Shown here piece by piece: positions 21,120 to 24,641 of a stretch of DNA of 35,780 nt; the first letter of the stretch is position 1, and each line of letters starts with the position of its first letter. Source of the stretch: Minisyncoccota bacterium. GTDB taxonomy: Bacteria > Patescibacteriota > Minisyncoccia > UBA6257. The notes under the pieces are model-generated. The model did not search any database. It was not told the DNA's origin and saw only the letters and a program-made list of their open reading frames with translations. The stretch lies in the NCBI GenBank assembly GCA_041654015.1, contig JBAZEI010000003.1, positions 1 to 35,780 on the forward strand, in the 5' to 3' direction. The position numbers were made by a program, and so were the translations under genes.

Positions 21120-21320
21120 ATGGGATGCAAAATGGAATTCAAAGTTGATAAATCAATTTGTATTGGTTGCGGCGCTTGTATCGGGATTTGCCCTAATGGG
21201 GCAATTAAAATAGAGAAGGATGGAAAATCCTCTATTGATCAAAAAAAGTGTAAACACTGCGGTGAGTGTCAAAAGGTGTGCCCGATGAAGGCTATCAAAG
21301 TAATTAAAAAGCTTAATTAA
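21120..21320 (+). CDS. 2x[4Fe-4S] ferredoxin
   Basis: CIGCGACIGICP and CKHCGECQKVCP motifs in 66 aa. The start may instead be the second ATG (MEFKV, 21132). Confidence 0.85.
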   Translation: MGCKMEFKVDKSICIGCGACIGICPNGAIKIEKDGKSSIDQKKCKHCGECQKVCPMKAIKVIKKLN

Positions 21321-21332
21321 ATTAAGCTTTTT
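21306..21332. terminator. Perfect palindrome AAAAAGCTTAAT-TAA-ATTAAGCTTTTT, a bidirectional terminator-like hairpin
   Basis: 12-bp arms; the loop TAA is the ferredoxin stop codon. A- and T-runs flank it on both sides, and it lies between the ferredoxin gene (+) and tRNA-Pro (-). Confidence 0.6.
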
Positions 21333-21349
21333 AAAATTATGATATTTAG

Positions 21350-21423
21350 GTGGTCGGGGCATCCAGACTTGAACTGGAACTAAATCCTCCCAAAGGACTC
21401 GTGCTGCCATTACACTATGCCCC
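21350..21423 (-). tRNA. tRNA-Pro (anticodon TGG)
   Basis: CGGGGCA-TA-GTGT-AATGGCA-GCAC-G-AGTCC-TTTGGGA-GGATT-TAGT-TCCAG-TTCAAGT-CTGGA-TGCCCCG-A-CCA. It has C1:G72, G37 and an encoded CCA. Confidence 0.9.
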
Positions 21424-21431
21424 GCATTTGT

Positions 21432-21503
21432 GTCTCCCTGGGAGGAGTCGAACCTCCATCAACGGCTTAGAAGGCCGCCACTCTATCCATTGAGCTACAG
21501 GGA
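21432..21503 (-). tRNA. tRNA-Arg (anticodon TCT)
   Basis: CTCCCTG-TA-GCTC-AATGGATA-GAGT-G-GCGGC-CTTCTAA-GCCGT-TGAT-GGAGG-TTCGACT-CCTCC-CAGGGAG-A. CCA not encoded. It lies 8 nt from tRNA-Pro. Confidence 0.88.
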
Positions 21504-21587
21504 GTATTTTAATCTTATCATATCTTTGATTGAAATAAAAGATTTTTTTGTTTATAATGAAGTAAAAATGGGGCTTATGCTTTAAAG

Positions 21588-22673
21588 ATGAATATGTTGA
21601 AAGGAAAATTTGTAGTTTGCGCCTATTGTGGTAGAAAGATATATCGATCACTTACTGAATTACGCAGAAAATCTAAAACGGGAGTTTATTTTTGTAATCT
21701 ATCTTGTCATTGCGCTTGGAGAAATAAGCAAAGAAAAAGTAAGAAGAGATTCAAATTACTAAAAAATTTATGGGGATCGTGGTGTAATAGTAGCACTAGG
21801 ACCTGTGGAGTCCTCGGTACGGATGCAAATTCCGTCGATCCCCCATTTTTCTTTCTAAAATTTTTAAAGTCCAAGAAGAAAACTAACGCTTTATTTCTTA
21901 AGCGGCCATCAAAGAAAATTCTTTATAATCTTTATTGGAAAAAGAATTATACTCAAACTGAAATAGCTGAAATTTTTAATGCCACTCACACTAGCGTGAA
22001 GAGATGGTTTAACTATTATAGAATTCCAGTGAAGCGTCGAACTTTATCTTGTGGTCATAATCCTAATACTTTAAAGAATTTAAAATTAGGTCGCACAGAC
22101 AAAGCTATTAGAAAATCGGCAGAAGCAAGAAGAATTTATTCAAAAGAAAAACTCATTGAGAAAATAAAAGATTTTGTTCAAAAAGAAGGAAGAATTCCTA
22201 TAAAGAACGAATTTATTAATAATTCCTTCTATCCAGATTATGTTACTTACAGACATTATTTTGGCACTTGGAATAATGCTATCAAGGCAGCGGGCTACAA
22301 GCCAAATGAGCAATGGTTTACCTCAGGAAATTTATTTGCTAAAGATGGACATAAATGTGATTCAATTTCAGAAATAATCATTGACGATTGGTTGTTTGAA
22401 AATCATATTCCACACATTAGAGAGTATTTATACCCGGAAGGACGATATCGCTGTGATTTTATAGTTGGCGATACTTTTATTGAATTTTTTGGTTTATTTA
22501 ATATTTCTATTGTTCCAAATTATACTGAAATCATTAAAAGAAAAAAGGAAATATGTAGGAAATTTAATATTTCCCTTGTTGAACTCTACGAGAAGGATCT
22601 TTATAGATTAGATCAATCCTTAGGACCAAAAATTGGGGTTCCTTTTGCGTCGCATATTACAACAAAAACTTGA
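21588..22673 (+). CDS. Zinc-ribbon / HTH / homing-endonuclease-associated repeat / PD-(D/E)xK-like nuclease protein; the ORF reads straight through a tRNA-His gene
   Basis: N-terminus CAYCGRKIYRS...FCNLSCHC (zinc ribbon). HTH is YTQTEIAEIFNATHTSVKRWFNYY. GRIPIKNEFINNSFYPDYVTYRHYFGTWNNAIKAAGY is a homing-endonuclease-associated repeat style segment. The C-terminus DSISEIIIDDWLFENHIPHIREYLYPEGRYRCDFIVGDTFIEFFG looks like a restriction-endonuclease-like fold. There is no in-frame ATG after codon 3, and the first in-frame GTG/TTG lies inside the HTH. Confidence 0.6.
   Translation: MNMLKGKFVVCAYCGRKIYRSLTELRRKSKTGVYFCNLSCHCAWRNKQRKSKKRFKLLKNLWGSWCNSSTRTCGVLGTDANSVDPPFFFLKFLKSKKKTNALFLKRPSKKILYNLYWKKNYTQTEIAEIFNATHTSVKRWFNYYRIPVKRRTLSCGHNPNTLKNLKLGRTDKAIRKSAEARRIYSKEKLIEKIKDFVQKEGRIPIKNEFINNSFYPDYVTYRHYFGTWNNAIKAAGYKPNEQWFTSGNLFAKDGHKCDSISEIIIDDWLFENHIPHIREYLYPEGRYRCDFIVGDTFIEFFGLFNISIVPNYTEIIKRKKEICRKFNISLVELYEKDLYRLDQSLGPKIGVPFASHITTKT
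21772..21843 (+). tRNA. tRNA-His (anticodon GTG) with encoded G-1 and C73
   Basis: G(-1)-GGGATCG-TG-GTGT-AATAGTA-GCAC-T-AGGAC-CTGTGGA-GTCCT-CGGT-ACGGA-TGCAAAT-TCCGT-CGATCCC-C. G-1:C73 is the His hallmark. Unusual features: T-loop TGCAAAT (G at position 55) and a D-loop without GG. Confidence 0.75.
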
Positions 22674-22699
22674 CAAATTATTTTGTTTTGCTATAATAG

Positions 22700-22748
22700 A
22701 AATGCCGTTGTTTGAAGGAGCTTGCTCCAACGAACAGCGGCATTTTTT
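22700..22748 (+). terminator. Long imperfect hairpin plus T-run, downstream of the 21588-22673 ORF
   Basis: AAATGCCG...GGAGC-TT-GCTCC...CGGCATTT followed by TTTTT. Confidence 0.55.
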
Positions 22749-22755
22749 ATTAAAG

Positions 22756-22785
22756 AAAACAACCCCGATAATCGGGGTTGTTTTT
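22756..22785. terminator. Bidirectional terminator-like hairpin AAAACAACCCCGAT-A-ATCGGGGTTGTTTT
   Basis: Near-perfect palindrome flanked by an A-run and a T-run. It sits 12 nt from the stop of the minus-strand 614-aa gene. Confidence 0.7.
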
Positions 22786-22796
22786 GCTAGCAATTT

Positions 22797-24641
22797 TTAA
22801 TTCTGGCGCATAGTCCGACGACAAGTATATGCTAACCAAATATCGCGGGTTTTACTTTCTACTTTCGCTAAAGCCAATTGGCCCTTGGGATTAAACTTTA
22901 AGTAATACCAAATAGCAAAAGTCAGTATTAAGCTGATGATGGATGATATAAGGAAAGCATTTGGAGACCCGGTTTTAACAGTAGCTGCTCCGGCAACTAG
23001 ACCGTAAGTAATAGTAGCGCTGTCAGTTACTTTATTTTGGTTATCGGCTGTTGCTTCGGCAGTATTAGTTTGGCTGAGATAGGTAGGTGAGTAAGCGTTA
23101 GTGGATGCCTGAAAAGTAATGGTTTTGCTAGTTCCCCGGTAAATAGTGCCTAACGATAAACCTGTTGTTGTGATAGTATCAGGTTGTGTAATTCCGTTTA
23201 TCTTTGTAGTCCCTGACATATAGGTAAGGGTGCTAGGCAAAGGATCTTTAACAATAACATTATGAAGGTCTGTGTTGCTGCCAGCGTTTACAGTAAGGTG
23301 GAACTCAATAACATCTCCTTGAGTAATTTGGATTACTTTTGAATAAACTCTACTGCCGGAAGAAAGATTGCGGCCTAATTTAGTGAGACTTAAATTAGTT
23401 CCGATAGGAGTGGTATAAATTGTGACAGATTGAGATATTGACCCACAATTACTGTGGCCATAACAGGTTAAAGTGTAAGTAGTGTTATTAGATGGAGAAA
23501 TACTTTCAATTCCGCTGGTTGATTTTGTGCCAGTCCACCCATTTGAGGCGACACAATAACTTGTGTAGTTGCTGCCCCACCGAAGATAAGTGGTTTCTCC
23601 TTGGCTAAGACTATATTTATCAGCCCAAAGATTAATTGTTGGTGGATTAATACATTGGTTGCCGCTGCTATAGATATAAGCATTACAAGAAGTGCTAGCG
23701 CTTCTGCCTTGTGAATCAGAGACAGTTAAATATGCTGTATAGGTTCCAATATTTGAAAAAGATGTTTGGTAATAAGAATTATAGCCATAGGCTGAGCCAG
23801 ACCAATAATAAGAATAATTGCCTAAGCCGCCGCTAACATTACTATAAAAGGTTATGGTTTGGTTAGTTTGAGCTGAACTAGGAGAAGCATAACAAGAAAC
23901 AGAAAGAGGAGAAATTTCTTGTTTACAAACATCTAAACAGCTGGAATATGAAGTGTATGGCCCGGAATAATCTTGGTAACATTGCCAGGTATTAGTGTTG
24001 CAAGAGTATCTTATGGGAGCAGTACAATTAGCTTGGCAATTGCTTAAAGAAGTATATTGGCCATAATAATCTTGGTAACATTGCCAGGTATTAGTGTTGC
24101 AAGAATATCTTATGGGAGCAGTACAATTAGCTTGGCAAGTGCTTAAGGAAGTATAGGGGCCATGGCTATCTTGGTAGCATTGCCAGGTAGAGGTATTACA
24201 AGCATAATGAGTAACTGGCGCTTGGCAATTAGCCTGACAAGTGCTTAAAGAAGTATATTGGCCAGACCCGCAATTAGCTTCAACACATTGCCAGGTATTA
24301 GTGTTACAGTTATATGTGGTATGGCATAGAGGATGAGTTGTTGTAGTGGTCATTACAATATGAGGGCGAGTTGTTGTGGTAGTCTGGCAGGTGCCACTAT
24401 GGCATAAGGGATGGCTAGCTATTATTGGAGTAGTATCGTTATCATGATGATTCTCATAATGGCTATCTATATCTGTATAGTTTTCAACAATACCACTGCC
24501 AGTAACTATAATTGCGGCTTCAGTATAAATTGGCGCCATTAATTCAAATAACAAAAACCCGCCTGTTAAAAGGCTTAAAATTATGTTTTTTTGCTCTGTT
24601 TTAAAATTAAATAATCTCATATTTTTATTAAATTTTTTCAT
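22797..24641 (-). CDS. Secreted or cell-surface protein: four 4-Cys modules, PKD/Ig-like domains, a DUF11-like repeat and a C-terminal hydrophobic anchor
   Basis: Signal/anchor (IILSLLTGGFLLFELMAPIYTEAA). Four ~33-aa modules follow, of the form CNTNTWQC(Y/V)..x..YTSLS.CQANC.AP. Next comes a PKD-like segment (SGGLGNYSYYWSG...YTAYLTVSDSQG) and then LTVNAGSNTDLHNVIVKDPLPSTLTYMSGTTKINGI (DUF11 style). The end is AATVKTGSPNAFLISSIISLILTFAIWYYLKFNPKG. Confidence 0.75.
   Translation of the reverse strand: MKKFNKNMRLFNFKTEQKNIILSLLTGGFLLFELMAPIYTEAAIIVTGSGIVENYTDIDSHYENHHDNDTTPIIASHPLCHSGTCQTTTTTRPHIVMTTTTTHPLCHTTYNCNTNTWQCVEANCGSGQYTSLSTCQANCQAPVTHYACNTSTWQCYQDSHGPYTSLSTCQANCTAPIRYSCNTNTWQCYQDYYGQYTSLSNCQANCTAPIRYSCNTNTWQCYQDYSGPYTSYSSCLDVCKQEISPLSVSCYASPSSAQTNQTITFYSNVSGGLGNYSYYWSGSAYGYNSYYQTSFSNIGTYTAYLTVSDSQGRSASTSCNAYIYSSGNQCINPPTINLWADKYSLSQGETTYLRWGSNYTSYCVASNGWTGTKSTSGIESISPSNNTTYTLTCYGHSNCGSISQSVTIYTTPIGTNLSLTKLGRNLSSGSRVYSKVIQITQGDVIEFHLTVNAGSNTDLHNVIVKDPLPSTLTYMSGTTKINGITQPDTITTTGLSLGTIYRGTSKTITFQASTNAYSPTYLSQTNTAEATADNQNKVTDSATITYGLVAGAATVKTGSPNAFLISSIISLILTFAIWYYLKFNPKGQLALAKVESKTRDIWLAYTCRRTMRQN

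Follow-up and report, generated by a model that had tools for sequence, protein, structure and literature searches.

A tRNA-His gene read in frame within a homing-endonuclease-like gene of a Minisyncoccota bacterium: one transcript that may be translated or processed to tRNA

In Alphaproteobacteria, selC, the gene of the transfer RNA (tRNA) tRNA-Sec, is nested in the selB open reading frame (ORF), and this was presented as the first case reported of a tRNA nested in a bacterial ORF (Mukai 2021, PMC8124441). Neither a later bacterial case nor an earlier description of the arrangement analysed here was found in the literature. The arrangement lies in a stretch of 35,780 nt (the window; positions 1 to 35,780, forward strand, of contig JBAZEI010000003.1, assembly GCA_041654015.1) from a Minisyncoccota bacterium. 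There, an ORF of 361 codons for a homing-endonuclease-like protein runs without a stop through a tRNA-His(GUG) gene on the same strand. We consider it rather probable (roughly 0.6) that this is a selfish, tRNA-linked endonuclease gene, one transcript of which is either translated or processed to tRNA. As in selB-selC, the whole tRNA lies in a bacterial ORF on the same strand and in frame, and its length is a multiple of three. Both arrangements are conserved across lineages with some losses, and tRNA processing and full-length protein are proposed as alternatives in both. On the other hand, selC forms a C-terminal extension after all SelB domains, and its processing spares the coding part except the stop codon. 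The tRNA-His is located in the middle of its ORF (residues 62-86 of 361), between the DNA-binding and catalytic parts, and its processing would split the message. Furthermore, SelB and tRNA-Sec are functional partners, whereas a housekeeping tRNA-His sits here in a selfish-type nuclease gene with no evident link between the nuclease and histidine decoding. Mitochondrial genomes offer other examples, namely tRNA-Lys within cox1 of Armadillidium (as cited in PMC8124441) and a tRNA-Pro-like sequence in octocoral mutS (PMC11353228). In these, too, a directly oriented tRNA lies wholly within coding sequence, and alternative processing has been proposed. In contrast to the present locus, they belong to organelle genomes under compaction and have no link to a mobile-type gene.

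The closest described nucleases are homing endonucleases. The 'EDxHD' Vsr-like homing endonucleases, with I-Bth0305I as their prototype, carry N-terminal modular DNA-binding motifs and a C-terminal catalytic domain and occur as free-standing inserts with their own control elements (PMC3239194, PMC2677866). The protein of the window resembles I-Bth0305I in its N-terminal modular DNA-binding part, including a helix-turn-helix (HTH), and in its Vsr-like C-terminal domain, for which the I-Bth0305I structure is the best fold match. However, no sequence similarity between the two was detected, and zinc ribbons and an HNH_repeat take the place of the NUMOD motifs. The present family, which is known from sequence and model, is chromosomal in bacteria of the candidate phyla radiation (CPR) and linked to tRNA genes, whereas the I-Bth0305I group is found in phage introns, inteins and fractured genes. 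Bacteriophage T4 SegB is a free-standing endonuclease encoded in a phage tRNA gene cluster, and it recognises the T-psi-C motif of tRNA genes (PMC2330249). The likeness lies in a free-standing endonuclease gene among tRNA genes, and phage relatives of the present family are found in a tRNA array too. In contrast, SegB is a GIY-YIG enzyme encoded between tRNA genes, whereas the present family is Vsr-like, in its nested clade lies round a tRNA, and is mostly bacterial and chromosomal. Searches of the ORF protein against Pfam and PHROGs gave no match to a GIY-YIG domain.

The ORF occupies 21588..22673 on the + strand and starts with ATG. ARAGORN placed a tRNA-His with anticodon GTG at 21773-21844 (+). 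With the His-specific G-1, which pairs with C73, the gene spans 21772-21843 (+; 72 nt), and CCA is not encoded in either the nested tRNAs or those of un-nested outgroup members. A stop-free 361-residue ORF through this tRNA had been claimed in a preliminary description of the locus, and its coordinates, sequence and translation agree with ours. The tRNA DNA is translated as residues 62-86 of the ORF, WGSWCNSSTRTCGVLGTDANSVDPP, and the in-frame translation over the region reads NLWGSWCNSSTRTCGVLGTDANSVDPPFFF. Example peptides spanning the tRNA-coded linker are NLWGSWCNSSTR and TCGVLGTDANSVDPPFFFLK. No Met codon occurs after residue 3 of the ORF. Codon 138 (agc GTG aag) is the earliest GTG in frame and falls within the HTH at residues 115-145, which bears out the earlier statement on start codons, and between the tRNA and this codon no in-frame start is present. 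At least 10 metagenomes, from oil-field, landfill and groundwater samples, have each yielded an independent assembly of exactly this 1.2 kb stretch. Therefore, an assembly artefact is ruled out.

Genome and metagenome scans yielded 112 loci. About 23 distinct tRNA-His sequences were found within a stop-to-stop ORF in the close subfamily, always between zinc ribbon 2 and the HTH and in one codon phase. Carriers of the nested form include the 225-kb contig CAYZJA010000002.1, a 551-kb contig encoding P0005, which is an ortholog with both zinc ribbons, and MNWE01. Cloverleaf statistics were obtained from an alignment of 22 nested tRNAs representing 20 distinct sequences. Of the cloverleaf cells, 99.3% were paired. 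Both-sided, compensatory changes were observed in 12 of 22 pairs and in all three variable stems. None of 500 shuffles reached the observed values, and slid controls were about 45% paired. The distance from G-1 to C73 was exactly 72 nt in 22 of 22 copies. The G-1:C73 pair (columns 1 and 72) was G:C in all 20 distinct sequences, and the anticodon loop was invariant as well. A genome-encoded G-1 paired with C73 is the identity element by which histidyl-tRNA synthetase recognises bacterial tRNA-His. The proportion of 'synonymous' differences (pS) was 0.34 in the tRNA segment and 0.68-0.70 in the flanks, that is, half as large. Such a low value would be expected under an RNA function that constrains all positions there. 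From the pairing, the compensatory changes and the invariant G-1:C73 and anticodon loop, the tRNA is therefore maintained as RNA. A mere tRNA-like insertion, as had been suggested, is unlikely, for selection acts on both the cloverleaf and the His identity elements.

The coding function was supported on both sides of the tRNA. Pairwise Nei-Gojobori ratios of nonsynonymous to synonymous divergence (dN/dS) were 0.24 upstream and 0.15 downstream of the tRNA, reflecting purifying selection on both flanks. In Patescibacteria, 36 protein clusters unite zinc ribbon, tRNA peptide and nuclease in one ORF, and 29 distinct tRNA peptides occur among them. The basic linker before the tRNA (residues 46-61, 21723..21770, +; KQRKSKKRFKLLKNL in the window) has 11-18 codons in six length classes. 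The linker after the tRNA has 0-27 codons in 11 classes, and all classes of both linkers are in frame. Even the extreme variants keep the frame: in one locus (L098) the HTH region abuts the tRNA with no post-linker, and in another (L086) zinc ribbon 2 is lost. By our estimate, about ten unconstrained, independent indels would all preserve the frame by chance with a probability of roughly (1/3)^10. Judged from these sequences, the conserved in-phase joining of two selected coding parts across many lineages exceeds chance. In intact loci, the frame up to the tRNA is free of stops, and neither a start codon nor a ribosome-binding site is conserved beyond the tRNA. Therefore, translation of the HTH, repeat and nuclease has to begin 5' of the tRNA, and processing of the tRNA would cut through the mRNA, as had been argued from the single sequence. 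A family that naturally starts after the tRNA was not found; un-nested relatives encode the region from zinc ribbon to nuclease as one contiguous chain, in which exactly the approximately 25 tRNA-coded residues are absent. Nor is the upstream zinc ribbon a fortuitous ORF, as the ribbon is integral to the family and selected at the protein level.

A database search with the ORF protein gave 149 homologs, almost all from Patescibacteria/CPR assemblies. Most of them are about 400 residues long and cover 96% of the query. Orthologs have two N-terminal zinc ribbons. The copy of the window is devoid of the first (about 37 residues), which all close orthologs possess, and may thus be a slightly truncated variant. 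When the window (21561-21620) was compared with locus L083 (290-460), the window protein was seen to begin with MNMLKGK just 5' of the second ribbon. The ribbon that is kept (residues 6-45, 21603..21722, +) corresponds to the second one of the orthologs. Its four cysteines (C11, C14, C36 and C40) are near-invariant across homologs, and its two strands and helix were modelled with a predicted local distance difference test (pLDDT) score of 74-94. The HTH region (residues 105-146, 21900..22025, +) matched Pfam HTH_28 below threshold (E 0.0012), and phage HNH endonuclease PHROGs also matched the HTH part. Its helices at 109-143 have pLDDT above 90. The HNH_repeat (PF18780, homing endonuclease associated repeat; residues 184-238, 22137..22301, +) was matched at 5e-14 and 52.7 bits against a cut-off of 26. 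Pfam and NCBIfam gave no significant family for the N-terminal piece or for the nuclease domain. The C-terminal alpha/beta domain (residues 245-350, 22320..22637, +) is assigned as a nuclease of Vsr-like fold from Foldseek, BFVD and PADLOC matches and invariant residues. Accordingly, of the domains named in the preliminary description the HNH_repeat stands firmly, the HTH is sub-threshold in Pfam with confident helices, the zinc ribbon is conserved while matching no Pfam family, and the nuclease is recognised only by fold and PADLOC.

The AlphaFold model was built from 69 sequences and has a mean pLDDT of 81. The zinc ribbon, HTH helices, HNH_repeat and C-terminal domain were all confidently predicted. 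Only two segments fall below 50, namely residues 62-85, which are the tRNA-coded peptide, and residues 93-103 in the next linker. The tRNA-coded residues are thus predicted to be part of a disordered linker between zinc ribbon and HTH. In Foldseek, the best PDB match was 3r3p, the catalytic domain of I-Bth0305I, with a template modelling (TM) score of 0.69 over the whole target and a probability of 1.0. TnsA, Vsr (1cw0/1vsr) and a DUF559-type nuclease were matched as well. The full-length model gave a weak E-value of 0.026 against the PDB. Among viral structures in BFVD, 36 matches at E <= 1e-3 were obtained to phage modular endonucleases with NUMOD3, Vsr-type, DUF559 and TnsA-like annotations. 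The family-invariant nuclease residues D253, H255, E262, D266, H276, D290 and E299 are known from the family alignment and may include counterparts of D51, H69 and D97 of Vsr. The nuclease part of PADLOC PDC-S69 was matched at 9e-13 by the window protein and at E 9e-13 to 3e-18 with relatives. On the basis of the model, the protein is a modular, Vsr-like protein of homing-endonuclease type with zinc ribbon(s), HTH, HNH_repeat and nuclease.

Comparison with relatives indicates how the nesting may have arisen. The nearest un-nested members (L103 = P0039, L105 = P0048, L106-108 = P0043) have the order tRNA-Arg(TCT), tRNA-His and then the ORF, the ATG of which lies about 20 nt past the tRNA. In L105, tRNA and ORF are separated by a terminator and a dedicated promoter. 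A tRNA-Arg(TCT) identified by ARAGORN and by locus comparison is also the syntenic neighbour of tRNA-His in the window (21432..21504, - strand). In other lineages it is on the same strand, immediately 5' of the tRNA-His or of the nested ORF. The wider family, with about 30-50% identity and zinc ribbons or HTH plus HNH_repeat and nuclease, was surveyed in 73 loci (L008-L080, 505 kb). There, tRNA-Pro(GGG/CGG) accounts for 59 of 78 tRNAs, and nearly all adjoin the 5' end of the ORF on either strand. In the same-strand loci the ATG is often only 5-25 nt past the tRNA end. In some distant loci a tRNA-Pro appeared to be inside the ORF; this is a stop-to-stop artefact, with the ATG and the first zinc-ribbon codon after the tRNA. 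Therefore, true nesting is confined to the tRNA-His clade. Since an ORF trailing a tRNA gene is the rule of the family, nesting is derived. The one position and phase in all nested copies suggest that nesting arose once. The T-rich stretch that follows the nested tRNA (21844..21899, +; residues 87-104, FFFLKFLKSKKKTNALFL) resembles the native tRNA-His trailer of the un-nested L103. The nested tRNA thus seems to have kept its own trailer, which is now read as FFFLKFLK and serves as the post-tRNA linker. The earlier suggestion of a nuclease gene assembled around a tRNA fits these comparative data, both the un-nested relatives and the family layout.

The history of the copies is also informative. 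Broken ORFs were found in five lineages, and the intact cloverleaf was kept in all of them. The L007/L094 lineage has two frameshifts, one of them within the T-run directly 3' of the tRNA. The others carry a nonsense codon (L095), internal deletions (L111), a C-terminal frameshift (L099) or a truncation (L104). Therefore, the tRNA is indispensable and the ORF is dispensable. A dispensable ORF beside a kept tRNA is what the life cycle of a selfish endonuclease gene would be expected to produce, as far as these sequences can tell. The un-nested L107 (1584-2855) and the nested L096 (668-1885) come from one metagenome series. Over their 3' 400 nt, which code for the nuclease, they share 83-98% identity, as against 50-75% elsewhere. 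This mosaic indicates recent recombination, or lateral exchange, between element variants.

A sigma-70-type promoter, TTGAAA-17-TATAAT (21530..21558, +; 11 of 12 matches), ends 29 nt 5' of the ORF start. It is the sole promoter-like site on the + strand before the tRNA in a scan of 21300-22900. In run X6, a relative whose flanking genes are about 87-90% identical carries this promoter segment too, and the 5' end of a canonical tRNA-His (GGTGGCCATGGTGTAGT) comes immediately after it. The relative is about twofold more abundant (depth ~132 vs 63) and syntenic from the ferredoxin ORF (window 21132-21558), and its contig stops within the tRNA. The site is regarded as a tRNA-His promoter because the relative has it directly before tRNA-His, and in the window it is presumed to serve both ORF and tRNA-His. 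In most other nested loci, the ATG lies exactly 6 nt past an extended -10 element (TGnTATAAT-N6-ATG). In the subfamily this arrangement was observed in L004-L006, L084, L087, L096-L101, L099 and L105, and the un-nested L105 carries the cassette after its tRNA. The spacing would imply leaderless mRNA in most subfamily members. The lineage of the window has a leader of 29-50 nt instead. No intrinsic terminator was found after the tRNA on the + strand in the scan, where only the T-rich trailer is present. Attenuation at His codons of the upstream ORF part was considered and rejected, as there is one His in 61 residues.

The preferred reading, that of a selfish gene with a transcript of two uses, can be put as follows. 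Nuclease genes of this family would reside in transcription units of tRNAs, in most cases starting a few nucleotides past the tRNA. In one clade the gene would have been rearranged, so that the 5' part of the ORF and the promoter lie upstream of tRNA-His and the 3' part lies downstream. The single promoter would give a single primary transcript with the 5' part of the ORF, the tRNA and the 3' part of the ORF. Ribosomes may read through the 72-nt tRNA and produce the full endonuclease with a tRNA-coded linker of 24-25 residues. Alternatively, the tRNA may fold and be excised by RNase P and the 3'-processing enzymes, which would yield tRNA-His and destroy the mRNA. The excision would leave a non-stop 5' fragment and a start-less 3' fragment. 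That ORF and tRNA are co-transcribed from this promoter, that translation competes with processing, that the protein is active in homing and that the cell has no other tRNA-His are the parts of this reading which we infer. Mutually exclusive expression, one of the explanations offered in the preliminary description, is the most likely consequence of the layout, and the two products would presumably exclude each other.

Several observations weigh against this reading. No matching contig was present in three small metatranscriptomes of the study holding the organism. The Rfam tRNA model gave 55.4 bits at 21773-21843, the lowest score among the tRNAs of the window, and ARAGORN or the fast filters of Rfam miss the nested tRNA-His in some loci. 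The nested tRNA-His could therefore function less well as a tRNA, or be processed less readily, than assumed. Its elbow is non-canonical, with the D-loop AATAGTA (no GG, hence no G18) and the T-loop TGCAAAT (G at 55). On the protein side, the profile of the nuclease domain matched neither PDB sequences nor Pfam, and the nuclease assignment depends mainly on the predicted fold and on a PADLOC match confined to that domain. In a neighbour-joining tree of the C-terminal part, nested and un-nested forms are intermixed. The mixing is attributed to recombination of the nuclease-coding 3' end between lineages, and the case for the polarity of the change is based on the layout across the family and on the trailer kept by the tRNA, not on the tree. 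No clean empty-site allele was recovered among the loci. As for the origin, the tRNA may have been duplicated into the linker and its original copy then lost, or two flanking copies may have fused.

The nuclease might instead benefit the host in anti-phage defence, in repair or in regulation at tRNA loci, with the tRNA linkage as a means of co-regulation. This account draws on the PDC-S69 match, on purifying selection of both halves and on the chromosomal location of the gene, which is rare on viral contigs (5 loci). However, the window protein and eight relatives alike match only profile positions ~162-283 of 289, so that only about 100 of the 289 positions are involved in every relative tested. 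PDC-S69 is itself an unvalidated candidate defence family, of which the searched literature makes no mention. The architecture of modular DNA binding, HNH_repeat and Vsr-like nuclease is that of homing endonucleases, which also give the best structural matches, and several decayed copies and a recombinant mosaic between lineages are known. The representative genomes of 185,579 species yielded no more than 207 matching stretches, and no defence-island neighbours are present. A host-beneficial role is therefore judged unlikely. It is improbable, too, that the tRNA-like segment is a relic or an RNA element, such as an mRNA processing or stability signal, which mainly encodes the linker while the true tRNA-His lies elsewhere. 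Such a segment would account for the low tRNA score, the loci missed by the filters, and the non-canonical D-loop and T-loop in 16 of the 20 distinct sequences. However, it would leave unexplained the compensatory changes in three variable stems, the invariant anticodon loop and G-1:C73, the covarying changes at 18:55, which are as for a maintained tertiary pair, and the positional orthology with the tRNA-Arg/tRNA-His pair of un-nested relatives. The tRNA is intact where the ORF has decayed, indicating that the tRNA itself is selected for. Only one tRNA-His species is usual in bacteria. When a tRNA-His with canonical elbow was sought in the contigs of four runs, it was found only for unrelated organisms, with none at the depth of the window organism, and this tells for neither view.

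Two further explanations dispense with a read-through protein of the proposed kind, and both are given very little weight. A small zinc-ribbon gene and a separate nuclease gene might flank the tRNA, the frame between them being open by luck. The caution in the preliminary description that a stop-free stretch of this length is not rare was correct: 33% of the sense frames of 142 tRNAs are stop-free, and the share rises to 57% for tRNA-His. Pipelines that mask tRNAs annotate only the downstream part (e.g. P0047 and P0052), which would agree with two genes. However, the absence of a stop before the tRNA and of a start after it in intact loci, the 11 post-linker classes that are all in frame, the direct contact of tRNA and HTH region in L098 and the single chain of the un-nested relatives make a chance ORF very improbable. 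The tRNA might also behave as an intron, with the mRNA halves re-ligated after RNase P and 3' cleavage to an in-frame message shortened by 72 nt. The constant length in all 22 aligned copies would indeed keep the frame upon excision, and the un-nested relatives imply that the protein works without the tRNA-coded residues. The length is equally needed for read-through, however, and no ligase or junction evidence was found. To our knowledge, such re-ligation has no bacterial precedent, and it is the least probable of the explanations considered.

The odd elbow deserves separate consideration. The T-loop in the nested subfamily is TGCAAAT or CGCACAT, while the other six tRNAs of the window have canonical elbows. 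With other isoacceptors of the same loci as an imperfect control, a canonical elbow (G18 G19; T54-psi55-C56) was found in 4 of 20 distinct subfamily tRNA-His sequences and in 62 of 64 other tRNAs (Fisher p = 1e-11). Among tRNA-Pro genes beside family ORFs, 37 of 58 have it (p = 3e-6), and the non-canonical ones occur in both orientations. The elbow positions covary: position 55 is T with GG in 35 cases and G without GG in 15, and a single case departs from this. The 18:55 changes alternate between GG/T55 and AG/G55, as those of a maintained tertiary pair would. The odd elbow may be a trait of the lineage or of the isoacceptor. It may also confer immunity of the resident tRNAs to the neighbouring nuclease, a reading suggested by analogy because SegB recognises the T-psi-C motif of tRNA genes. 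A joint reading can be formulated, in which a selfish, tRNA-specialised endonuclease family wrapped its frame round an essential tRNA-His and the neighbouring tRNAs were remodelled as immunity to self-cleavage. Within it, the enzyme may read the elbow-coding motifs of tRNA genes, as T4 SegB reads T-psi-C, and the near-universal G18:psi55 would have been driven to a compensated A18:G55. This joint reading is speculative and rather doubtful. If it is true, wrapping round tRNA-His would provide a housekeeping promoter, a position that is hard to delete and an expression level throttled by tRNA processing. A covarying elbow alteration linked to a nuclease family would be of interest to tRNA structural biology if the link is causal.

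Apart from the elbow, the arrangement would mean that one RNA must be either messenger or tRNA precursor, cut in mid-message, and the competition between ribosome and RNase P is accessible to experiment. On the ribosome side, initiation is probably leaderless in most lineages. Homing-endonuclease-like genes tied to tRNA genes in CPR bacteria also extend the SegB theme to bacterial chromosomes. Gene finders mask tRNAs before ORF calling. Therefore, the nested gene is truncated or split in public records and the arrangement has been unseen.

The neighbouring genes of the window are housekeeping genes, namely those of trigger factor, NusA, a YraN-like protein, ferredoxin, an aminoacyl-tRNA synthetase and an ABC transporter, and no integrase is among them. 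An integrated island as the cause of the tRNA adjacency was rejected, as a single gene with housekeeping neighbours and no integrase is seen. Two phage relatives (L116 and L117; IMGVR_UViG_3300028584_000098, a 97-kb viral contig) lie within a dense tRNA array with 9 and 6 tRNAs in about 5 kb each. The likeness to other nested tRNAs nearby, which the preliminary description had drawn, does not hold: the ORFs over tRNA-Pro and tRNA-Arg are mechanical ORFs of 47-85 residues. They lie at 21350-21651, on both strands, and look fortuitous.

Downstream of the gene, an extended promoter with 12 of 12 matches, TTGACA-16-TGnTATAAT, overlaps the stop codon of the ORF (22670-22800, +). On its 3' side, a perfect 48-nt hairpin with a U-run is followed by a second GC-rich hairpin (minimum free energy -49.5 kcal/mol, z -8.9). 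The region may be a small hairpin RNA gene or merely the paired terminators of convergent genes. At 22797-24641 on the - strand, an ORF of 614 residues encodes a probable surface protein, with a signal-like N-terminus, several Cys-rich repeats (CNTNTWQC...YTSLS.CQANC), DUF11 and a hydrophobic segment at the C-terminus.

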